Source: Planctomycetales bacterium (GTDB taxonomy: Bacteria; Planctomycetota; SBBH01). From it: a stretch of 35,579 nt of DNA. Every line of letters starts with the position of its first letter. Positions within the stretch are counted from its first letter, which is position 1. The stretch spans positions 1-35,579 of the forward strand of contig SBBH01000113.1 in NCBI GenBank assembly GCA_005239795.1, written 5' to 3'. Position numbers and translations under genes: made by a program. Shown here in pieces: positions 6,913-31,914 of this stretch. The notes under the pieces are model-generated. The model was not told the DNA's origin, did not search any database, and worked only from the letters and a program-made list of their open reading frames with translations.

Positions 6913-7260
6913 TCACCCTTTCTGCAGCTTCAAGACGAGCCGAGCCAAGTCCTCCTCAATCTCCTTCTGACGCGTCTGGATCCCTTTGAAAAGCTGCGGC
7001 GCGCCGGCGTTTCCTTCTTCCGGCCTCTTTTTCGCGGTCTCCTGGAGCCATGTCTGGGCCGACTCCTCGACGCGGCTCATCTTGCGCAAGGCCTTCCGAA
7101 GGCTCTCAGCGGGGGTTTCCCCCTCATCCTTGGCGAACGGCTCTTCTTCAGCAACAGCGCCCGTGAAAGCCAACAACGCAACAATGGCACTGCACGAAAT
7201 GCGAAATGCGAAATGCGAAATGCGCCGGCGAGACCATGCGTCCTCTTGCGCATGACGCAT
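6913..7260 (-). CDS. Small exported coiled-coil protein (possibly the N-terminal part of a longer protein continuing through TGA 6913-6915)
   Basis: ORF track 6913..7305. I prefer ATG 7260 (MRHAQEDAWSRRRISHFAFRISCSAIVALLAFTGAVA/EEE, signal-peptide-like), which avoids a 23-nt overlap with the upstream gene. The N-terminal codons are encoded by heptad repeats. Confidence 0.5.
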   Translation of the reverse strand: MRHAQEDAWSRRRISHFAFRISCSAIVALLAFTGAVAEEEPFAKDEGETPAESLRKALRKMSRVEESAQTWLQETAKKRPEEGNAGAPQLFKGIQTRQKEIEEDLARLVLKLQKG

Positions 7261-7278
7261 GACGCATGACGCATGACG
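7196..7278. repeat. Heptad array pair: GAAATGC x4 (7196-7223), 27-nt spacer, CATGACG x4 (7251-7278)
   Basis: Read directly; both arrays are perfect 4-unit tandem repeats. The arms are only about 5/7 complementary per unit. The pair lies between the stop at 7283 and the signal-peptide region of the next gene. Confidence 0.85.
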
Positions 7279-7282
7279 GTTT

Positions 7283-9652
7283 CTATCGCTGTTCTTGATA
7301 CACATTGAGCCTCCAATCGTTCCCGAGCTGGCGGATCCGCGCCTGATCCTTCATCAAACGCTCAAGCGCGGCGCGCTGGTCCACAGTGAGCGCCGGGATC
7401 TCCCGGACTTGCCCCCGCAGCTTTTCCACGCGGGCGTTCAAATCCCTCTGTAAATTCCAGAGAAGCCTCACCTCGTCGACAGAACGCACCAGCGGCATCT
7501 CCATATCTCCCGTCGACGCCATCGGACGGGGGGCGGGACGCTCCCTCTCGGCGTCGAGGCGCCCGAGAAGCGTCTTCAACCCCTCCCGCATCTGGCCGAG
7601 AAGACCCAAGACTTCCGATTCGATATCGACCAGCGCCGCGGTGATCTCAGAACGCATCAAGCATGCCCGGATCTCTTCTATCTTTCCGGCCGCCTCCCCG
7701 GCGGCCCAGGCGTAGACGACCGACTTCCATTGTGGATTATCGAGCTTCTTCTGAAGCCCGCGGGCCTCCTCCACAAGGAGCCCCTCATCGACCACCAGGG
7801 TCCGGATCTCTTCCTGTTCCCAGACCCCGAGATCCCCCCCTTTCTTCAGATCCTCCCAGATCCCCTCGGTCCTATGCTTGACGGCCTCCTGTCCCGCAAT
7901 CAGCCGATCGAGATCCCCTTGAAGGCTCGAGAGCGTCACCTTGGCCTGCTCCGTCGCATACTGCCTCTGCTTGTCGCGCACGGCGGCGGCGGCATCCTCC
8001 AGGTATTTCAAGGCGCGCTGAGCCTCCCAAAGGCCCGAGTCGAGGTACTCCTCACGGAAAAGCCCTTCGACGAGAAACATCTGATCAGCCGCCTTCTGGA
8101 TCTGGCGGGCGGCTTCCTGCGAAAGATCCCGGTCGAGCGCGAGCGCCTCGGCCACACGCTTGGCTTCCCGGGCCGCCTCTTCCTGCGCTCGACGCAGGCG
8201 CTCCAGCTTCTGTCGGTCTTCGGCGCCAAGGCTCCCCCGCTCCAGGCGCTCGATCTCTTCGCGCGCCTCGGCCAAAAGTTTCAAGGCCTGCTTCTGATGG
8301 CCGGGAGCGTCGATCTGGGAGCCCGAATCCTCCTGCATGGACTGGCGGGCCTTCTGCATCTCGTCGGCGGCGGTCGAGATCCGCGAAGAGGCCGCCCCGG
8401 CCTTGCTCTTCTGGGCGTCGGCCGCTAGGGCCCGCGCCTCCTTCTCGAGCGCCTCCTGGCGGCGAGCCGCATCAGCGCCGGCTTCCGGAGGTTTTCCCGC
8501 CTCGTCCGGACCCGGCTGGGAGGCCGAAGTGCCAGGTTTCCCTTGCGGCCCGGGCGACGAGGAAGGGCTGGACGATCCCGATTTTGACGCGGACGCGCCG
8601 GAAGGTTTAGACAGCGAGGCGGCGCGCGCCTGGGCGATCGCCTGATCAAGAGTCGCGATCATCTGCTCAAGATTCTTTTCGGCATGTGCCTGGCTTTTTC
8701 CAGCCTGCGCACCGTCTCCAGCGCGGAGCGCCTCGGCCGCCTGCTCCATCGCCGCGGCCGCGGCGGCCGCATCCTTCCCGGCCTGTGCCAATGCCGGATC
8801 GGCCGGGGGGGTCGCTTCAGCCTGATTCTCCCTGGCGCCCGGGGCGCCCGGCTCGCCTCCAGCCGACCCTGTGAGCTCGCGGGCGAACTGGGCTGTTTCA
8901 CGCCCCAGGTTCGCCTGCGGCAAAGCTTGAGCCTGGGGACTGGATCCCTCCGACCCCTTGGATTCCTGAGGAGCTTCGCCGGGCTTCTCCTGTCCTCTAG
9001 CGGCAGGGCCGCCGAGCCGCTTCTGATTTTCCAGAATCTCCCGCGCCTTGTTCCGGGCCTCTTCAAGCGCCCCGGCCCTCAACATCCCCTCCTGGGCGGC
9101 CGCGAGAGCGTCGAGCCGGCGCTTGATCTCGCGCACGTCGGCCGGGACCGCTCGATCGAGGATGCTCTGCCCCTCCTCGATCACCTTCCGTTCCTTCGCC
9201 GAAAGATCCGCGATCGCGCGGGCGGCGTCTGCGAGCGACTTTTCGCGCTCGCGGACTGCCTCCAGCCGCGCCTCAAGCGTCAGCGCCTCCAGGATCTGGC
9301 GGAGGCTCTCACGCACGGCGTCGGCGCTGGACGCCGCCCCGGTGAAATCCTGCTCTTCGAGGGCGCGCAGGACCTCGTCCATCTCGACCCCGATCCACTC
9401 TTGTTCGAGGCGCGCGAGCGCCCGCTCGAGCCTCGCGCGCTTGTCCGCCTCCTCAGGTTTGGCGGCGTACTTATCCACGAGGCACCTCAGGGCCTCCGTG
9501 AGATGGTCAAAGCGCTCCCTGGCGGCGGCCTGACGGCGCCGATGCCGTGCGCCGTCAGGCCCGGCCACCACCCAGGAGACCGCCACCAAGGCCGCGATCA
9601 CCCCTCTTTTGAACGACCCTCGCGCCAGACGGGTTCTGAATTTTTGCTTCAC
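7283..9652 (-). CDS. Large membrane-anchored coiled-coil protein (low-complexity A/E/Q/R-rich)
   Basis: 789-aa ORF. N-terminal basic stretch plus TM (GVIAALVAVSWVVAG), then long heptad-like helical sequence. The GTG start at 9652 overlaps the upstream TGA (GTGA). Confidence 0.7.
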   Translation of the reverse strand: MKQKFRTRLARGSFKRGVIAALVAVSWVVAGPDGARHRRRQAAARERFDHLTEALRCLVDKYAAKPEEADKRARLERALARLEQEWIGVEMDEVLRALEEQDFTGAASSADAVRESLRQILEALTLEARLEAVREREKSLADAARAIADLSAKERKVIEEGQSILDRAVPADVREIKRRLDALAAAQEGMLRAGALEEARNKAREILENQKRLGGPAARGQEKPGEAPQESKGSEGSSPQAQALPQANLGRETAQFARELTGSAGGEPGAPGARENQAEATPPADPALAQAGKDAAAAAAAMEQAAEALRAGDGAQAGKSQAHAEKNLEQMIATLDQAIAQARAASLSKPSGASASKSGSSSPSSSPGPQGKPGTSASQPGPDEAGKPPEAGADAARRQEALEKEARALAADAQKSKAGAASSRISTAADEMQKARQSMQEDSGSQIDAPGHQKQALKLLAEAREEIERLERGSLGAEDRQKLERLRRAQEEAAREAKRVAEALALDRDLSQEAARQIQKAADQMFLVEGLFREEYLDSGLWEAQRALKYLEDAAAAVRDKQRQYATEQAKVTLSSLQGDLDRLIAGQEAVKHRTEGIWEDLKKGGDLGVWEQEEIRTLVVDEGLLVEEARGLQKKLDNPQWKSVVYAWAAGEAAGKIEEIRACLMRSEITAALVDIESEVLGLLGQMREGLKTLLGRLDAERERPAPRPMASTGDMEMPLVRSVDEVRLLWNLQRDLNARVEKLRGQVREIPALTVDQRAALERLMKDQARIRQLGNDWRLNVYQEQR

Positions 9653-12447
9653 TCTTCTTCCCCCAGTTTGCGCCGGATTTCCCCGGCGCGCGCCGAATCG
9701 CTCCGAATTGCCAAAGCCTCATCGACGGCCCGCCGGGTCTCGTCTCGCCGGCCGGCCGCCAGATGAATCTCGGCGGCCAGGCAATGCAGGTCATGCGTTG
9801 CGGCGTCCACTTCCTCCGGCATCTTCACGTAGACAGGCAGGAAGGAGAGCGATTTCAAGCCCGCCTCCGTCTCACGCAGGGCCGCCGCAGGGTCGGCCAA
9901 CGCCCTGTGCGCCTCGGCCATCGCCAGGTGCGTCCGGGCGTCGAACGGATCGATCCAGAGGAGCTGCATCCCCACGTCGAGGAGTTGCGCATGGCGCCCC
10001 GCCTCGCGATGGCGCGCCAGAAGCCAACGGCGCGACCGCTCGTCCTCATGAACGATGGCGATGCGCCGCTCGACCGCCTCGCGCATGAGGCGCTCGTCTC
10101 CCAGCTCCTTCGCTAGATCGTAAACCTTCCGATAGGGGTCGAACCCACCGTAGACCTGGCGCGGAAAGAACGCGCGCGCCTTCTCAAAATAGCGGATCGC
10201 CTCCGCCGCGCGCCCATCCTCCTCGGCCGTCAACACTCCCAGGGCATGAAAAAGGTAAAAGTCCTCGACGCCCAGTTTTTCCGCCTCCTCAAAATACTGT
10301 CGAGCCTTTTTGATCTCGTCGCGGTCAAATGCCATGTGCCCCAGAACGACGCAGGCGTCGGCGAGCTTTACCCGATCGAGACTCTCCCGCCAGGAGGCTC
10401 CCCTTTCAACGACGCGGCGGGCGTTCCGCTGAGCCTCGTCCAAAAGACCGTTCTGGAAACAACCTCGCGCCAGGCGCGCCGCCAAAAGCAGATCCTCCGG
10501 CGCCGCGGCCGCTTGCGCGGCCAGGCGCTCGACCTCCTCGCGGGACAGGCGGGGCTGGATCTTCCAGGCGGCCAGGCGCTTCCCCAGCCACGCCGCGAAA
10601 TCCTTGTCAAGGTCCGAAAGCGCCACGCCCAGCGCCTCGTGGACCACCGCGGCGTCGCGCCCCCCCGTCCAGCCGCGCATCATCTCCTGGGCGCGCGTCT
10701 TGGCGCCCGAGCCCTTCCGCCAGGCCGCCATCATGCGGGAAAGCCCCTCGACGCCAAACCGGCCGTCGAGATACTCGCAGACGAGGCTCGAAACGTAGTA
10801 GTACATCCGAACCTTGTCGCCGCCGAACCCCTGGCTGAGCCTTGAGATCGGCAGAAGCGTCCCGTCATGGAAAGCGTCGAAGATCTCCTCGTCGATCCCC
10901 TCCTCCCAGTCCCATTCGGGGCGGAAGCGCCTCTCCTCGTAGGTCGACAACCCTTCCGTGAACCATTGTGCCACCAGCCCCTCGGTGGCCTGGACCGAGA
11001 AGATGTGCGTGAGCTCATGGCGCAAGATCTGCGCCCAACACCTCTTTCGCGGGGCTAAGGTCGTCGGCGACTGGTTGACGACGACGCGTCCGAGACAGAC
11101 CCCCAGGAAGGGGACGCCGGGAGTGCCGAATCCGCGCACGGCGAAATCCTGCGCGTCGTCGTAGAGCTCGACGCGGATCGGAAGCTCCGGCTGGAAGCGG
11201 TAGCGGGCTGAGAGCTCCGCGTACCACGATTCCAAGAGCGACTCGGCGTAGGCGCGCAAGACCGGCGCCTCGCGGCGGGAGAGGCGCAGCTCAAAATGCT
11301 CGGTCTTCGAGACCTCGAAATAATCCGGCAGGTCCTCGAGAAGCGTCAGGCAATTCTTGGCCGTCACGTTGAAGAGATCCATAGCGCGCACCCGGCGAAA
11401 CGCTTCGGTGGCCGACGCGATGTCTCCCTCATTCATGCTGTGGAGGCCGAGCGAAAGCCATGCCTCCTTCAAAAACGGGTCGATCGCGACGGCCTTCTTC
11501 TCCCAGCGGATCGCCTCGCGTGGGTCGCGGGGGTTTTCCGACAGACGCGCGGCCCACAGTTCGGGAAGAGCGCAACAGGGATTTATCGCGCGAGCGGCGG
11601 ATGAGCTCTTTGTGAACTTCTCGAGATCCCCGTCGTAATAGTGCCAGGCGGCCGCCGCGGCATGTGCGGCAGCGCTCCGGGGGTTGGCTTCAAGCGCCCG
11701 CGCCAGGTGTTCCAGGGCCTCCGTGCGCGCCGCCGCGCTCGCCACATACCCGGGTCCGTCCCCCCGATAATCGGATCCCTCTTGGGCCTGTTCCTCCTCG
11801 CCCCCTCCCATGGAGCCCGCCTCACGACCGAAGAGAAGATTCAAGGCGCGGGCCACGCGGCAATCGGCGCGTTGAGGGGCCTGCCGGACCGCCTCTTCGA
11901 TCCTCCCCAACACCATCAAAAGATCGGGATCCCGAGGATCCTTTTCGAACGCTGCCGAAGTTTCAGCTTTGGCGTCGTGCTTCTGGCCGGCCGCCATGAA
12001 CGCGCGGATCCGCAGGACATGGGGACGCACAAGCCCCGGAGCCTCCCTCGAAATCGAGGGGAGCTCTTCTTGAATGACGCTTTTCATGAGCTCTGCGTCG
12101 CCAGTGAGCTCGGCCAGGAGAAAACGCGCTTCGGCCCGCGCCAGGCGCGCCGAAAGGGGCCCCTCCTGGCCGACGGCCAGTGGCGCCACCAGAGGCTTTA
12201 AGATCCCCACCGCCTCCTCGCGCCGGCCCGTCTCAAGAAACGTCCGGGCTGCCAACAGACGCGCACGGCCGTCCGAAGGATCTCGTGCCACGTACCGGAG
12301 AACCGCCTCGCGGGCTTTCTCATACTCGCCGCGGCCTAGCATCGCCTCGGCTTCCTCAAGAGAGGTGGCCCCGAGCAGAAAGGAGGGAAATGCCAGAAAG
12401 GCCGCGGCCCTCCACGCCAAAACCCCGCGCCGCGGCCGGCTCGTCAT
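9649..12447 (-). CDS. Exported TPR-repeat protein with a central MA-clan (HExxH) metallopeptidase-like domain
   Basis: Signal-like N-terminus (AAFLAFPSFLLGATS). TPR-like repeats at both ends. ILRHELTHIFS...WFTEGLSTYEE matches the HExxH plus downstream Glu pattern of Peptidase_MA-type domains. Strong SD AAGGGAGGG 5 nt upstream of ATG 12447. Confidence 0.8.
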   Translation of the reverse strand: MTSRPRRGVLAWRAAAFLAFPSFLLGATSLEEAEAMLGRGEYEKAREAVLRYVARDPSDGRARLLAARTFLETGRREEAVGILKPLVAPLAVGQEGPLSARLARAEARFLLAELTGDAELMKSVIQEELPSISREAPGLVRPHVLRIRAFMAAGQKHDAKAETSAAFEKDPRDPDLLMVLGRIEEAVRQAPQRADCRVARALNLLFGREAGSMGGGEEEQAQEGSDYRGDGPGYVASAAARTEALEHLARALEANPRSAAAHAAAAAWHYYDGDLEKFTKSSSAARAINPCCALPELWAARLSENPRDPREAIRWEKKAVAIDPFLKEAWLSLGLHSMNEGDIASATEAFRRVRAMDLFNVTAKNCLTLLEDLPDYFEVSKTEHFELRLSRREAPVLRAYAESLLESWYAELSARYRFQPELPIRVELYDDAQDFAVRGFGTPGVPFLGVCLGRVVVNQSPTTLAPRKRCWAQILRHELTHIFSVQATEGLVAQWFTEGLSTYEERRFRPEWDWEEGIDEEIFDAFHDGTLLPISRLSQGFGGDKVRMYYYVSSLVCEYLDGRFGVEGLSRMMAAWRKGSGAKTRAQEMMRGWTGGRDAAVVHEALGVALSDLDKDFAAWLGKRLAAWKIQPRLSREEVERLAAQAAAAPEDLLLAARLARGCFQNGLLDEAQRNARRVVERGASWRESLDRVKLADACVVLGHMAFDRDEIKKARQYFEEAEKLGVEDFYLFHALGVLTAEEDGRAAEAIRYFEKARAFFPRQVYGGFDPYRKVYDLAKELGDERLMREAVERRIAIVHEDERSRRWLLARHREAGRHAQLLDVGMQLLWIDPFDARTHLAMAEAHRALADPAAALRETEAGLKSLSFLPVYVKMPEEVDAATHDLHCLAAEIHLAAGRRDETRRAVDEALAIRSDSARAGEIRRKLGEEE

Positions 12448-14194: not shown

Positions 14195-14268
14195 GGCGGG
14201 GTAGCTCAGTCGGTTAGAGCGAGGGTTTCATAAGCCCTAGGTCGCCGGTTCGAGTCCGGCCTCCGCCA
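14195..14268 (+). tRNA. tRNA with CAT anticodon (elongator tRNA-Met, or tRNA-Ile2 if C34 is lysidinylated)
   Basis: Manual cloverleaf. Acceptor GGCGGGG/CTCCGCC (one G-U). D arm GCTC-AGTCGGTTA-GAGC. Anticodon stem AGGGT/GCCCT with loop TTCATAA. Variable AGGTC. T arm GCCGG-TTCGAGT-CCGGC. Discriminator A. CCA is not encoded. Confidence 0.9.
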
Positions 14269-14305: not shown

Positions 14306-14306
14306 T

Positions 14307-14412
14307 AGAACAGGAGAGGGTAGAAAGTAGAAAGGAGAAAGTAGAGATCTCCTGGGAATGACAAGAGGACACCCTCTCCTACGGTCTACTGTTCTCCTTT
14401 CTCCTCTCTCCC
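14307..14412. repeat. Heptad array pair: purine-rich GTAGAAA-type x4 (14320-14347) and a pyrimidine-rich TTCTCCT-type arm (about 14375-14411)
   Basis: Read directly: GTAGAAA GTAGAAA GGAGAAA GTAGAGA, then ..ACCCTCTCCTACGGTCTACTGTTCTCCTTTCTCCTCTCTCC. GGAGAGGGT (14312-20) pairs perfectly with ACCCTCTCC (14371-79). Confidence 0.7.
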
Positions 14413-14462
14413 AAGAGCCAAGTTTCGCGTATCGTCCACCTACACACCTTCGGTGTTACGGT

Positions 14463-18113: not shown

Positions 18114-18692
18114 TCACAATCGTCCCTCCAAGAAATTCGCCAGGATCTTCTTCCCCTCTGGCGTCATGAACGACTCCGGATGGAACTGCACCCCCCAAAC
18201 CGGGAGGGTCTTGTGGCGCATCCCCATGATGACACGCGCCCCGGAGGGTTCTTCTGCCCAGGCGGTCACCTCAAGACAGTCCGGCAGGGTCGCTTCGTCC
18301 ACGGCCAGGGAATGATACCGCGCGGCCTCGAACGGGTCAGGAAGGGACCTGAAAATCCCCCCCCCGTCGTGGCGCACAGGGCTCGTCTTGCCGTGCATGA
18401 GGCGCGGGGCGTGAACCCAACGCCCTCCGAAGGCGACGGCGATCGCCTGATGCCCCAAACAGACCCCCAGGATTGGCACCTTTCCCGCCAGCTCCCGGAC
18501 AAGCGGGATCGAGATCCCGGCCCGCTCCGGCGTTCCAGGCCCTGGGGAGATCACAAGATGCGTCGGTTTTTTGGCCGCGATCCCATCGCCGGTCGCGGCG
18601 TCGTTCCGGACCACGTCGACCGAGGCCCCGAGTTCTTCCAGGTATTGAAGAAGGTTGTAGGTGAATGAGTCGTAGTTGTCGATCAGAACCAC
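18114..18692 (-). CDS. trpG: Glutamine amidotransferase of anthranilate/aminodeoxychorismate synthase (TrpG/PabA type)
   Basis: [20 protein letters not shown] (catalytic Cys), GVQFHPES. The start is uncertain. GTG 18692 gives the canonical [11 protein letters not shown]-terminus. ORF-track ATG 18749 adds 19 aa encoded by a heptad array. Confidence 0.85.
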
Positions 18693-18698
18693 ACGAAA

Positions 18699-18782
18699 GT
18701 GCTGAGTGCTCAGTGCTGAGTGCTGAGTGGTGCGAGACAGAGAAGACATCAGACTCAGGACTTAGGACTCAGGACTCGAGAC
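18699..18782. repeat. Heptad array pair, 12 phased units: GTGCTGA-type x4 (18699-18726), 28-nt spacer, TCAGGAC-type x4 (18755-18782)
   Basis: Read directly. About 20/28 arm positions are complementary by eye. Spans the rlmN stop (18755-57) and the trpG 5' end. Confidence 0.8.
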
Positions 18783-19804
18783 TTTCTTAACCTCAACTGT
18801 CCACACGCAGCGTCAATATCGGCTCCCTTTCGAACGCGCAGGGTGGTGACAATCCCGCCGGTGCGCAGGCGTGCCGCGAACGCTGAACAGCGCTCCCGCG
18901 GCGGCGTCCGGTAGGGAGTTTCGGGAACCGGATTGAAGGGGATTAGGTTCACCTTGCAAGCCAGGCCGCTGACAAGATCGACGAGATCCGCGGCTTGGCT
19001 GAGGGAATCGTTCACGTCATTCAAGAGAATGTATTCAAAAGTCACCAAACGGCCGGTCCGTTTTTGGTATTTCTGGAGAGCCTCCATCAATACCGGAATC
19101 GGGTACTTCTTGTTGATCGGCATGAGGCGCGTCCTCAGCTCGTCGCGCGGGGCATGGAGCGACACGGAGAGGCGCAGTTGCCCTTCCATCTGGGCCATCT
19201 TGGCGATCCCCGGGACAATTCCCGACGTCGAGATCGTGATGCGTCGGGAAGAAAGCCCCCCTCCTTCCCCTTCGGGCGCGCACAGACGCTCGATCGCCCG
19301 CTGGACGTTCTCCACATTGAGAAGCGGCTCCCCCATTCCCATGAAGACCACGTTCGTGATCGGGGCGTCGGTCACCCCCTTCAGGGCCAAAAATTGGTCG
19401 AGGATCTCGGCCGTCGTGAGGTTGCGCTCCAGGCCATCGAGCCCCGACGCACAGAACCCGCAAGCGATGGGGCATCCCACCTGCGTGGAAAGGCAGACGG
19501 TGCGCCGCCCATCCTCAGCGGGGATCAGCACGCACTCGACGAACTTCCCGTCGGAGAGTTCCAGGAGATATTTCTGCGTCGCGTCTTTCGATTTCGGCGA
19601 TTCGACCACGCGGGACCCGAGGACCGGATATTGGGCCGCGAGCCGCCCCCGCAGATCCTTGGGAAGGTCGGTCATCGCGTCATAGGAAAGCGCCCCCTTC
19701 TGCCAAACCCAGGCCATGACTTGGCGAGCGCGGAAGGGGGGGAGACCGACCGATTGGAAGGCAGATTCCAATTCCGAAAGCGTAAATTCCGCTAGTGCCT
19801 TCAC
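18755..19804 (-). CDS. rlmN: 23S rRNA/tRNA adenine-C2 methyltransferase RlmN (radical SAM)
   Basis: [25 protein letters not shown] (CxxxCxxC), [18 protein letters not shown]. The start is uncertain: GTG 19804 ([13 protein letters not shown]) or ORF-track TTG 19831. Confidence 0.9.
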
Positions 19805-19813
19805 GCGAAAACT

Positions 19814-19976
19814 CCAAACGCCAAACAGCAAACACCAAACAAACGCCCAACAACCAAACGCCCAAAAAACAAACCGACGCCAGACATGTTTAGGCCTTCT
19901 CTCTTCCGGTTTTGTTTTGCGTTTGTCGTTTTTCCGTTCGTTTGGCTCTTGTCTTTTCGGTGTTTTACGTTTCGCC
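19814..19976. repeat. Long heptad array pair: A/C-rich CCAAACR-type (19814-19876), spacer, G/T-rich YGTTTKG-type (19907-19976)
   Basis: Read directly: CCAAACG CCAAACA GCAAACA CCAAACA AACGCCC AACAACC AAACGCC.. and CGGTTTT GTTTTGC GTTTGTC GTTTTTC CGTTCGT TTGGCTC... Fills the thiolase-rlmN spacer. Confidence 0.75.
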
Positions 19977-21166: not shown

Positions 21167-21216
21167 TAGGGAAAGTATATCAGAGCGGAGTCTGACGCGC
21201 GCACAGCCATGACAGC

Positions 21217-21298
21217 GCGGCTCGTGATGCGTGGCTCGAAATTCATGGCTCGCCGGAGGCGGTCCTCCTGCGAACCACGAATTACGTTCCACGAACCA
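21217..21298. repeat. Heptad array pair: GYGGCTC/GTGATGC-type (21217-21251), spacer with apical GGAGG-CGGT-CCTCC hairpin, CGAACCA-type x4 (21271-21298)
   Basis: Read directly. About 21/28 positions are complementary. The arm motif is shared with the element inside the methyltransferase gene. Confidence 0.8.
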
Positions 21299-21309
21299 CA
21301 ATCAGGCTC

Positions 21310-27627: not shown

Positions 27628-28446
27628 ATGCCGAAGCTTCCCCTCAACCGCCGCTCCTTCCGGCAGACGCTCCAACGCTACGACAGCGCCGTGGAGCGGA
27701 AGATCCGGGATTTGAACGCCGCTCGAGGGGAGCCGGCGACGCGCCGGGAGGTGAATGCCTTTTTCAAGCGGGAGCTTGCGCGCCTCGGACGCTTCGAGCA
27801 CGCCATCGACCTCGGGTGCAACACCGGCGATTTTGCACGCGCGGTGCTGGCCCCCCGGTGCCGGGAGTTGATCCTCGTCGATTTTTCGGCGAAGGCGCTC
27901 GCCCGCGCCAGGGCCACAGTCACTTCTCCCAAAGGTGGAAATCATCCGCCGTCCGTGACTCGTGGATCGTGGATCGTGGATCGCGAACAGTCACTGCGCC
28001 GGCGAACCACGCGCCACGAACCACGAACCACAAAAAGCCTCTCGTCTATTCCGCTGGCGGTCTCTTTCCTGCAAGCCGACCTCACCCGCGACTGGGCCAA
28101 GATCGCCTCGGTGGGGCCGTTCGATCTTGTGACTCTTTGCGAGGTGATCCAGCATATTCCCGATGCAGTGAAGCGGCGCCTTGTCTTTGCCCGCGCGGCG
28201 CGCCTCGTCAAGCGCGGCGGGCTTTTCCTCTTCTCGCACTATGCGCGGGTGCCCGGAGAACCGGCCGAAGGATTCTTCCACTCGCCGCATTACCGACATC
28301 TCCTCTACTACCACTCTGCGCAGGCGGGCCAGATCGAGCGATGGGCGAATCGGGACGGACTCCTCATCCTCAGGCACGCGCGCCTCGGCCCCGTCAACGC
28401 CTTCCTCATGAAGAAGGGGCCGTCCGGAAATAACTGCTGTGTCTGA
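27628..28446 (+). CDS. Class I SAM-dependent methyltransferase carrying an approximately 40-aa repeat-encoded insertion
   Basis: Motif I AIDLGCNTGDF, motif II LILVDFS, then VSFLQADL and FDLVTLCEVIQHI, GGLFLFS. The ATG directly abuts the pcp stop (TAGATG). Confidence 0.8.
   Translation: MPKLPLNRRSFRQTLQRYDSAVERKIRDLNAARGEPATRREVNAFFKRELARLGRFEHAIDLGCNTGDFARAVLAPRCRELILVDFSAKALARARATVTSPKGGNHPPSVTRGSWIVDREQSLRRRTTRHEPRTTKSLSSIPLAVSFLQADLTRDWAKIASVGPFDLVTLCEVIQHIPDAVKRRLVFARAARLVKRGGLFLFSHYARVPGEPAEGFFHSPHYRHLLYYHSAQAGQIERWANRDGLLILRHARLGPVNAFLMKKGPSGNNCCV
27954..28030. repeat. Heptad array pair inside the methyltransferase CDS: CGTGACT CGTGGAT x3 (27954-81), 21-nt spacer, CGAACCA CGCGCCA CGAACCA CGAACCA (28003-30)
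   Basis: Read directly; 11 phased units. About 23/29 positions are complementary. Translated in frame as ..SVTRGSWIVDREQSLRRRTTRHEPRTT.. Confidence 0.85.
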
Positions 28447-29293: not shown

Positions 29294-29328
29294 CTCATGT
29301 CCCATGTCTCATGACCCATGACTCATGA
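29294..29328. repeat. Single heptad tract CTCATGT CCCATGT CTCATGA CCCATGA CTCATGA in the permease-permease spacer
   Basis: Read directly. 14-nt super-period. Each unit contains the self-complementary CATG, giving five AUGs on either strand. Confidence 0.8.
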
Positions 29329-29334
29329 CTTTCC

Positions 29335-30210
29335 TCATCCCCCCTGTATCGTGAGCCGCCGGATCGCCCGATGCCAACCCCAGATCCCCGTTCCCCACAG
29401 GAGGAGGCTCCAGAACGCCTGCCCAGCAAGCGCCGCCGGAACCGCCAGATCCGGGATCTTACCTAGGTAGACGAGCACCGGAACCTGGCTGATCCCGGCA
29501 AACGGGAGAAGCTCGAGAACCCGCGCCGCGGCTGGCGGGAAGAAGCTCAAGGGAATGAGAAGCCCCGAGAGAAGCTGGATCCCCACATGCTTGGCCCAGA
29601 TGAGCCCCTCCACGTTCTTCAGAGAAAAAGAAGCCAGGGCTACCAGGAAGTTGATACCGCTCATCAAGACGAGAGACAACGTGACGCTCACCAGGACCGC
29701 CAGGGCCTGCCGGCCGTCCGCCGGGAGGGGAATGCCGAACACCGCCCCCACCACCACGGCGATCGGAAGGGTAAAAAAAACAAGGCGGAAGGCCGATTCC
29801 CCCACGGCGCCAACGAGCTTGGCGACGGGGTAGTTGACGGGCCTCAGGAGCTGTGCGCCGATCCGGCCCTGGCGCACCTCGCCCGCCACCTCGCGGTCGA
29901 TGTTGTTAAAATAGAACGACCGCAGAATCCAGCCGACCGCGACGAAATTCATCATCTCGCCGACGCCAAAATCTCCCAGCCGCTCGGCTGGGCCGTAGAT
30001 CCCCTTCCACAAGAAGGAATAGGCCGCAATGTAGACGCTGTAGGTGAGAATGCCGGTGACGTAGCGCAGCCGGTAGGCCAGAATCTGCAAAAAAGCGATG
30101 CGGGCAAAAGCCCAATAGGACCGAAATGGGAAATGGGAAACGGGACATGAGATTGGCTTGCCCATCAGATTTTTCATTTCGCATTTCTCATTTCGCATTT
30201 CGGACGTCAC
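29335..30210 (-). CDS. ABC-2-type transporter permease (first permease)
   Basis: Multi-TM ORF (YRLRYVTGILTYSVYIAAYSFLWKGIY..). GTG 30210 overlaps the ATPase stop (GTGA). The alternative ATG 30165 lies in the loop of the heptad hairpin. Confidence 0.75.
   Translation of the reverse strand: MTSEMRNEKCEMKNLMGKPISCPVSHFPFRSYWAFARIAFLQILAYRLRYVTGILTYSVYIAAYSFLWKGIYGPAERLGDFGVGEMMNFVAVGWILRSFYFNNIDREVAGEVRQGRIGAQLLRPVNYPVAKLVGAVGESAFRLVFFTLPIAVVVGAVFGIPLPADGRQALAVLVSVTLSLVLMSGINFLVALASFSLKNVEGLIWAKHVGIQLLSGLLIPLSFFPPAAARVLELLPFAGISQVPVLVYLGKIPDLAVPAALAGQAFWSLLLWGTGIWGWHRAIRRLTIQGG
30122..30202. repeat. Heptad array pair: CGAAATG GGAAATG GGAAACG GGACATG (30122-49), 25-nt spacer, CATTTCG CATTTCT CATTTCG CATTTCG (30175-202)
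   Basis: Read directly. About 23/28 positions pair, including one G-U. Confidence 0.85.
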
Positions 30211-31234: not shown

Positions 31235-31807
31235 TCAGGGGATGTTGAGAGGCGTTAGAGGGAATCGGGCGAGTACCGTGTGGACGGCCCCTTCAGTGCC
31301 GAGCTCCGACTGGTAGAGAATCACCCCCTCCACGCGGTGGGTCCCCCTGGGCGGCGGCGGTGTAGATAGGATCGTCCGCACGTCGACAGGCCGTCCCTTC
31401 CCCTGGAGGCGCGCCAAAGTCAGGTGCGCCGTAAAAAATCTCTCCTCCAAGGGGACGGGAAAAGGGGCAAGCGCCCCGCGCAAAACGTCAGCCAGCCGCG
31501 CCAAGCTCCCCTCGGGGTCCGCGAGCCCCAACCACAGAATGCGGGCGCGCGCCGGACTCGGGAAGGCCCCCCATCCCGCCGTCGACACGGAAAACGCCGG
31601 ACGCCCGGCGGCGGCCTTCGTGAGAACGAGCGTCATCGGAAGCACCTGCTCCCGAGCCACCTCGCCCAGGAACAACAGCGTCAGATGCACCGCTTCGGGC
31701 GCGGTCCAGCGGAATGCGGCGCCCCCCTGGCTTTTCAGGAGGCGCTGGGCCTGGGTGACGATCGATGAAACCGGAGGGACGAACTCGGCCGCAAGAAAGA
31801 CCCTCAT
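31235..31807 (-). CDS. thpR: RNA 2',3'-cyclic phosphodiesterase (2H phosphoesterase, ThpR/LigT family)
   Basis: Two H-x-T-x motifs: HLTLLFLG and HLTLARL. 190 aa. Confidence 0.8.
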   Translation of the reverse strand: MRVFLAAEFVPPVSSIVTQAQRLLKSQGGAAFRWTAPEAVHLTLLFLGEVAREQVLPMTLVLTKAAAGRPAFSVSTAGWGAFPSPARARILWLGLADPEGSLARLADVLRGALAPFPVPLEERFFTAHLTLARLQGKGRPVDVRTILSTPPPPRGTHRVEGVILYQSELGTEGAVHTVLARFPLTPLNIP

Positions 31808-31811
31808 TGCA

Positions 31812-31910
31812 CGAAATGAGAAATGGGAAACGGGAAATGAGAAAAAAACAGTGGCCGGCGATGCGACCGCCTCCGCATCTCACATTTCACATTCCTCATT
31901 TCACATTTCA
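31812..31910. repeat. Heptad array pair: CGAAATG AGAAATG GGAAACG GGAAATG (31812-39), 43-nt spacer, CATTTCA CATTCCT CATTTCA CATTTCA (31883-910)
   Basis: Read directly. About 22/28 positions are complementary. Begins 5 nt from the thpR ATG and ends 4 nt from the Rieske stop. Confidence 0.85.
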
Positions 31911-31914
31911 GCAA

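Follow-up and report, generated by a model that had tools for sequence, protein, structure and literature searches.

A heptad-repeat hairpin carried in frame by a methyltransferase gene of an uncultured planctomycete-like bacterium

The methyltransferase gene and its hairpin

Contig SBBH01000113.1 of the Planctomycetales bacterium assembly GCA_005239795.1, analysed here from position 1 to 35,579 (this whole stretch of 35,579 nucleotides is called the window below), carries at 27628..28446 on the plus strand a gene for a 272-residue NodS-like class I methyltransferase dependent on S-adenosylmethionine (SAM), recognized from its open reading frame (ORF), Pfam, alignment, an AlphaFold2 (AF2) model and matches in the Protein Data Bank (PDB). 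Inside this gene lies a hairpin built of tandem 7-nt units, or heptads. Its left arm (27954..27981, plus strand) consists of the four heptads CGTGACT CGTGGAT CGTGGAT CGTGGAT, its right arm (28003..28030, plus strand) of CGAACCA CGCGCCA CGAACCA CGAACCA, and between them stands the spacer CGCGAACAGTCACTGCGCCGG (27982..28002, plus strand), whose 21 nt equal exactly three heptad lengths. Direct reading, Tandem Repeats Finder (TRF) and an inverted-repeat search all detect both arms, and a period scan also marks the left one; TRF recovers both arrays (27960-27983, period 7 with 100% matches, and 28003-28031, period 7), and the inverted-repeat search returns 30-nt arms at 27955-27984 and 28002-28031 that are 80% complementary with 17 nt between them. 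An initial annotation of this DNA had described a 77-nt element of four units, a three-unit spacer and four further units within the ORF, and the sequence reads exactly so.

The stem is a succession of 6-bp helices with one interruption per heptad, mostly a central A.A mismatch. Its predicted RNA fold of about -41 kcal/mol (z = -4.15) was equalled by none of 200 shuffles, and the DNA fold reaches -24.4 kcal/mol (z = -3.5). The hairpin is not an intrinsic terminator, because no T-tract follows it on either strand (the 3' flank is CACAAAAAGCC on the plus strand and GGACGGCGG on the minus strand), and a terminator scan does not list the element. A 9-nt direct repeat, ACAGTCACT, present at 27916 and 27987, was considered as a duplication scar and set aside, since such a repeat is expected at roughly chance level in 181 nt.

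The ORF runs across the element with no stop and no frameshift and encodes the peptide given in the initial annotation, and neither CGTGGAT nor CGAACCA contains a stop codon in any of the six frames by direct reading. The 77 nt of the element are themselves not divisible by three; the frame is kept because the whole lineage-specific segment, and not the element alone, adds a multiple of three. This segment, SPKGGNHPPSVTRGSWIVDREQSLRRRTTRHEPRTTKSLSSIPL, covers approximately residues 100-143 (27925..28056, plus strand) and is delimited by an alignment gap, by low values of the predicted local distance difference test (pLDDT) and by a split in the Pfam domain. Judging from the open frame, it is presumably translated.

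The host protein is a class I SAM-dependent methyltransferase. All 42 of the 42 residues invariant in the family are kept in the alignment with its homologues, where DLGCNTG and LVDFS are conserved, and the Pfam profiles Methyltransf_12, 23, 25 and 11 all score above cut-off, each match being split in two, with an end near residue 103 and a resumption near 139. The AF2 model (mean pLDDT 86, predicted template modelling score 0.84) finds its best Foldseek match in NodS (3OFK, E = 5e-11), and a profile search likewise places NodS first among PDB entries (3OFJ, E = 9e-10). Within the model, a helix at 88-99 is followed by coil over 101-140, with a 3-residue helix at 138-140, and then by a strand at 144-149; block-mean pLDDT is 43-56 in the inserted segment vs 88-98, mostly above 90, in the flanking blocks. 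The encoded stretch of about 41 residues is thus modelled as a disordered surface loop in the stretch joining helix B to strand 3, in keeping with the surface exposure that had been proposed for checking. The class I methyltransferase topology places this stretch by the N-terminal end of the strand, opposite the SAM-binding edge. By the logic of the fold rather than by measurement on coordinates, the insert would face away from the SAM pocket. Its effect on the enzyme is probably neutral.

The segment is specific to a narrow lineage. A search of 5.8e9 proteins yielded 13 homologues, 217-242 residues long save one with a C-terminal tail and one 161-residue fragment, and ten of them show a gap at the segment with no extra residues in the link, two others being partial. 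The link at this position is about 20 residues in the homologues, and is short in NodS and in the distant homologues L007-L009 and L012, which were fetched as DNA; the links of L007-L009, when folded, gave no notable hairpin. The family is rare, since only five of 1.84e9 cluster representatives reach E <= 1e-30 in a profile search, and none of the five has the insert. The scan of genome contigs found a metagenome-assembled genome, L001, as its sole match, that of metagenome contigs returned only distant homologues of 38-40% identity without the insert, and a search for closer relatives with the ABC-ATPase gave a best match of 78% protein identity. A conserved segment of equal length in unrelated taxa, the finding that the initial annotation had named as refuting, was looked for among the 13 homologues, the five cluster representatives and NodS, and none was found.

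An assembly artefact or a decaying pseudogene is a further explanation to be weighed, and the window is indeed a single metagenomic contig, the only one on which the host protein was found. The ORF is nevertheless intact with every invariant residue present, its GC content at third codon positions (0.76) is similar to that of neighbouring genes, each 28-nt array is below typical read length, about ten similar elements are spread over the contig, all of them at plausible gene boundaries, and an orthologous element occurs in an independent assembly, L004, so that this explanation is the least credible of those weighed here. The gene order Peptidase_C15, methyltransferase, ABC-2 operon is preserved in L001, L004 and L012, the methyltransferase family always standing beside a pyroglutamyl peptidase and an ABC-2 transporter operon.

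Age and length change at the insertion site

The methyltransferase of L004 is 62% identical to that of the window overall and 71% outside the insert. At the same codons, its gene reads CGCGGAT CGTGGAT CG, then CAGACAACCGCCCCGTCGG, then CGAGCCA, that is, 2+1 heptad units vs 4+4 in the window, and the L004 spacer is about 69% identical to that of the window (a count by eye). The window exceeds L005, another relative, by 41 codons and L004 by 26 codons (78 nt). The insert is old rather than recent, because the element is common to the window and L004; on this comparison of sequences, it is older than the split of the two lineages. The interpretation offered in the initial annotation is supported overall with this qualification of age, and its suggestion that the elements are expandable agrees with the difference in unit number. 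The central position of the TGGNTCG / CGANCCA unit is mismatched in all three versions, with different bases, as A.A in the window, as C.A in a second copy near 21217 described below and as A.G in L004, and the states found at this one site, none in L005, 2+1 in L004 and 4+4 in the window, form a natural series that illustrates how repeat growth can extend a protein loop stepwise with the frame kept.

Other palindromes occupy the same loop. L001 has at 10320-10345 a different, perfect hairpin, CCTTCTCCCC-CAC-GGGGAGAAGG, and the loop of L005 holds only a 14-nt palindrome, CGGGGACGTCCCCG, at 570-585. The loop has repeatedly been home to hairpin-forming DNA, since L004, L001 and L005 each show palindromes there, and the site seems to attract them.

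A unit length that is not a multiple of three, arrays placed within coding sequence and a heptad copy number that varies between lineages are what a phase-variation (contingency) switch would display, in which gain or loss of 7-nt units shifts the frame and turns the methyltransferase off and on. Such a switch is very improbable here: three to four units per array are few for high-frequency slippage, the arrays are imperfect, and a small NodS-like methyltransferase has no obvious need for switching.

Heptad hairpins across the window

The element belongs to a family. The window contains 14 runs of period 7 (13 after merging) vs a mean of 0.02 in shuffles, and the same scan found no run of period 5, 6 or 8-11. 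The 13 arrays were detected regardless of complementarity, and for ten of them an inverted complementary partner exists that scores beyond the 99th percentile of random windows. A strict search with three units per arm gives six hairpins in the window vs none in 20 shuffles, and no strict heptad hairpin in about 60 kb from five loci of relatives; L001 and L004 have one period-7 run each in 15-20 kb, vs the 14 in the 35.6-kb window. On a gene map drawn from Pfam scans and alignment to L001 and L004 orthologues, nine of the 13 arrays fall within the 11% of the window that is non-coding, and this uneven placement suggests selection against coding copies. The copies occupy gaps between the cistrons of operons on the minus strand.

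Two pairs of copies are paralogous unit by unit. The partner of the methyltransferase copy (27954) lies upstream of a thiolase gene (21214..21302, minus strand), has GTGGTTC / GCCACGA units and, as minus-strand RNA, folds at -51.2 kcal/mol. No TGGNTCG doublet lies outside these two loci (seven matches vs 0.36 expected), which have in common the 5' boundary TTGTGGTTCGTGG, the unit, the unit order and the position of the variant unit; the common origin that the initial annotation had argued from the arm motif is reinforced by the matching boundary and order. In the 21217 copy, the variant third unit AATT is paired with a complementary variant in the opposite arm. The second pair consists of the hairpin between the Rieske and LigT genes (31808..31914, minus strand), with TGAAATG / CATTTCN units forming 6-bp helices with 1x1 mismatches, and the hairpin at the ABC_tran/ABC2b junction (30118..30208, minus strand). 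Mean column identity of these copies, 31812 and 30122, is 81% over the whole elements and by our own count about 90% in the arms, and they match in their variants, AG(G/A)AATG as third 5' unit and CGTTTCC as second 3' unit. At the 30122 site, all five relatives compared (L001, L004, L012, L013 and L014) have a 4-nt stop/start overlap instead, which makes the 30122 copy an addition of the window lineage. This copy is flanked at both ends by GTCC..GTCC, and no flanking duplication is present at 27954. The 14 loci fetched contain no exact heptad doublet of either subfamily. The core GCCGGCG of the 27954 spacer recurs in the spacers of the 7191 and 31812 copies, and its presence in three of seven family spacers has P = 4e-4 by resampling.

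The Rieske-LigT junction also shows how the arms change. L004 (9665-9735) and L013 (1850-1920) carry there a heptad hairpin with GAAGCGC / GCGCTTC units in unequal numbers, about four against two, and the step between GAAATG/CATTTC of the window and GAAGCG/CGCTTC of L004 and L013 amounts to two compensatory pair changes in all units. The hairpins of the window and of L004/L013 are likely orthologous, and arm complementarity is, as far as these sequences indicate, maintained in the heptad hairpins. At 31853-31868 (minus strand), the spacer of the 31812 copy contains a small GC-rich apex stem-loop, GGTCGCATCGCCGGCC, followed by ACTGTTTTTTT, a nested terminator-like motif.

The remaining copies are more varied. 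One hairpin has arms that flank the junction between the RlmN stop and the GATase start (18692..18788, minus strand). Another stands directly 3' of the DUF4175 gene (7188..7288, minus strand), with CGTCATG / CATTTCG units that give 5-bp helices with 2x2 loops. A purine/pyrimidine-rich hairpin of GTAGAAA / TTCTCCT units (14306..14418) begins about 40 nt downstream of tRNA-Met (14195-14268). Two arrays have a single arm without an inverted partner: five GTCATGA-like units between the ABC2b stop and the ABC2a start (29294..29331, minus strand), and an array reading AAACNCC on the plus strand that ends at the GTG start of RlmN (19809..19874, minus strand). The former supplies each of the three frames between ABC2b and ABC2a with ATG and TGA, and four arrays, at 7190-7200, 18692-18700, 19800-19812 and 31805-31815, read in the sense direction, end in TTTCG(C)GTG at or beside the downstream start codon.

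Some copies enter coding sequence. The ABC2b frame is open from its conserved GTGA start through the whole 30122 copy (VTSEMRNEKCEMKNLMGKPISCPVSHFPFRSYW...), the other two frames having stops; the GATase frame, begun at the conserved ATG within the TGATG junction, meets no stop along the 3' arm of the 18696 copy, which adds 13 residues relative to L001, and the 5' arm of that copy encodes a C-terminal tail of RlmN and supplies a new TGA, two codons ahead of the ancestral stop. The 27954 copy is thus, on the reading frames, likely not the sole copy to be translated, those at 30122 and 18696 contributing to protein termini. The initial annotation had singled it out as the only copy clearly internal to a domain, and it is indeed unique in this respect among the approximately ten copies of the window, but its uniqueness does not extend to coding in general. 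An ORF at 6913-7305 (minus strand) spans the entire 7191 copy and continues into a signal-peptide-like sequence (RRRISHFAFRISCSAIVALLAFTGAVA-EEE), and this element may form the N-terminal coding stretch of a small secreted protein.

The positions of family members exactly at operon stop/start junctions, the covariation of their arms between species, the stable structure of the methyltransferase copy and its retention in two lineages could all be expected of a nucleic-acid signal selected within the coding region, whether for mRNA processing or stability, for a ribosome pause, as a protein-binding cruciform or as an element of the antisense strand. The methyltransferase copy moreover folds better on the minus strand (-47.5 kcal/mol) than on the plus strand (-40.5 kcal/mol), and minus is the orientation of the operon copies. 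Set against this, neither strand is consistently the better-folding one across the family, the nearest minus-strand gene end is about 450 nt from the element, neither strand has a T-tract, no Rfam match was obtained for this or any other element, and L005 has lost the hairpin, while L012 and all more distant homologues lack it, the gene being still intact; selection for such a signal at this site appears improbable. A strand-specific RNA function for the family is unsupported, as the better-folding strand differs between copies. No family hairpin has a T-tract tail, and RNAalifold, run on a MAFFT alignment of seven elements in which the arms were misaligned out of register, returned no consensus. 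Candidate functions of the family would be translational coupling, mRNA processing, or none.

Origin of the family and comparison with known repeats

The reading that we favour, and hold to be moderately probable, is that the element is a copy of a heptad-hairpin repeat that is dispersed, can be copied and can expand, behaves much like the Rickettsia palindromic elements (RPE), and is tolerated in a permissive loop of the methyltransferase. Heptad hairpins would then be lineage-specific short palindromic repeats whose normal place is the intercistronic gaps of operons. The 27954 copy, or a shorter precursor of it, would have entered the methyltransferase gene before the split of the window and L004 lineages and come to lie where helix B connects to strand 3; in the window lineage its arms would have lengthened to 4+4, probably by slipped-strand mispairing of the 7-nt units, and complementarity may have been kept by selection against unpaired variants or by templating from arm to arm. 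The gene would tolerate such an insert because its units are free of stops, its net length is a multiple of three and the segment forms a disordered surface loop.

Several observations weigh against this reading. L005, which is sister to L004 and 86% identical to it outside the insert, is without the heptad element, so that one clean in-frame loss or two gains must be assumed, and the homology of the L001 hairpin to the element is uncertain. No relative above 80% protein identity is available, and recent gain, loss or change of unit number are consequently not observable. Six-frame peptides of the 27954 and 21217 copies matched only the window's own protein among 5.8e9 proteins. The window showed no transposase among its 21 larger ORFs scanned, no terminal inverted repeat and no target-site duplication that convinces. 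At 18696, the spacer holds the ancestral junction CTGATGTC, which L001 has in identical form, and each flanking gene contains one of the arms, a layout more readily explained by growth in place than by the arrival of a ready-made element.

These last points lead to the alternative of a purely in-place origin, in which the loop gained a short inverted repeat, for example by template switching, both arms grew in a lineage with a tendency to 7-nt slippage, and the likeness between loci arose by gene conversion or convergence. The 2+1-unit version at the same codons in L004, the other small palindromes in the loop of L001 and L005, the conserved TGATG junction in the 18696 spacer and the single-arm arrays at 29294 and 19809 are all in its favour, and heptanucleotide tandem repeats are reported to be, in many bacteria, the most frequent of the long simple repeats, with slippage given as their cause (PMC4679880). 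Independent growth does not predict, however, that 31812/30122 and 27954/21217 would be paralogous unit by unit with common boundaries and variants. A spacer core is common to loci with different heptads, and five relatives have nothing but a 4-nt overlap at the 30122 site, without any precursor hairpin. We regard a wholly in-place origin as rather unlikely. For the dispersed repeat, the mobility put forward in the initial annotation is supported indirectly, by unit-by-unit paralogues and by the new copy at 30122, and not in terms of a transposition mechanism or a target-site duplication.

A bolder proposal, and one to be viewed with some scepticism, is that the hairpins represent an undescribed class of bacterial repeat: self-renewing palindromes whose arms co-evolve as 7-nt arrays with a rhythm of six paired positions and one mismatch, which are copied between sites, grow around stop/start junctions with the junction in the loop, set translational coupling or mRNA processing, and write disordered segments into proteins. 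If this were true, new disordered segments at protein termini and inside a folded domain would be a by-product of the class. Paired heptad-array hairpins are not described in the literature searched, which did yield heptamer direct repeats and RPE; its coverage was incomplete and does not amount to proof of novelty. Should a complete genome confirm the family, it would offer a tractable system for the origin and spread of hairpins and for the remodelling of operon junctions and protein termini.

[quoted passage not shown] The whole heptad element is itself an inverted repeat, and the flanking GTCC..GTCC is seen at 30122 only, but the heptad hairpins showed neither terminal inverted repeats tied to a transposase family nor a clear target-site duplication. 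With repetitive extragenic palindromic (REP) sequences, bacterial interspersed mosaic elements (BIME) and the REP-derived REPIN, the family has in common imperfect palindromes in intercistronic gaps of operons, the lack of a T-tract and dispersed copies that fall into subfamilies. REP and REPIN have, however, a 20-40-nt consensus and a GTAG head, whereas the heptad hairpins have neither and consist of tandem heptads with a periodic mismatch; no consensus extends beyond the subfamilies, and no REP-associated tyrosine transposase (RAYT) was seen in the window.

Heptanucleotide repeats come closer in their unit. They have been described as 7-nt units in 2-6 copies per array, with a strong intergenic bias and often ending near start codons (PMC4679880), and the arms of the hairpin, by TRF and the period scan, contain at least three tandem 7-nt units as such repeats do. 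The known cases (the short tandemly repeated repetitive sequences, STRR, of cyanobacteria, TAACTGA of Beggiatoaceae and long simple repeats in general) are nonetheless single direct arrays of one genome-wide heptamer, and of the sets in the Beggiatoa genome 169 are direct and one is inverted, whereas ten of the 13 arrays in the window form inverted pairs and the unit varies by locus.

The nearest parallel in behaviour is provided by RPE, which are both intergenic and inserted in frame in unrelated metabolic genes, with the encoded peptide at positions compatible with the fold (PMC10969869). The 27954 element is likewise a palindrome within a coding gene, in frame and in a surface loop modelled as disordered, the enzyme being intact in other respects, with intergenic copies too. 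Membership of an RPE consensus family is a different matter: RPE, of about 100-150 bp, form consensus families with a conserved encoded peptide and are not built of tandem 7-nt units, whereas the heptad element has 77 nt, its arms are heptad arrays, its unit varies by locus and its peptide has no other match in 5.8e9 proteins, and the descriptions of RPE set it apart. Nearly half of RPE are in ORFs, in contrast to a single domain-internal copy among about ten heptad hairpins of the window, and their hosts are AT-rich, obligate intracellular Rickettsia, as opposed to a planctomycete-like bacterium of 64% GC. In-frame palindromic repeats have been documented mainly in Rickettsia and rarely inside a well-defined fold; the present case concerns a free-living, GC-rich lineage and a repeat of a different kind.

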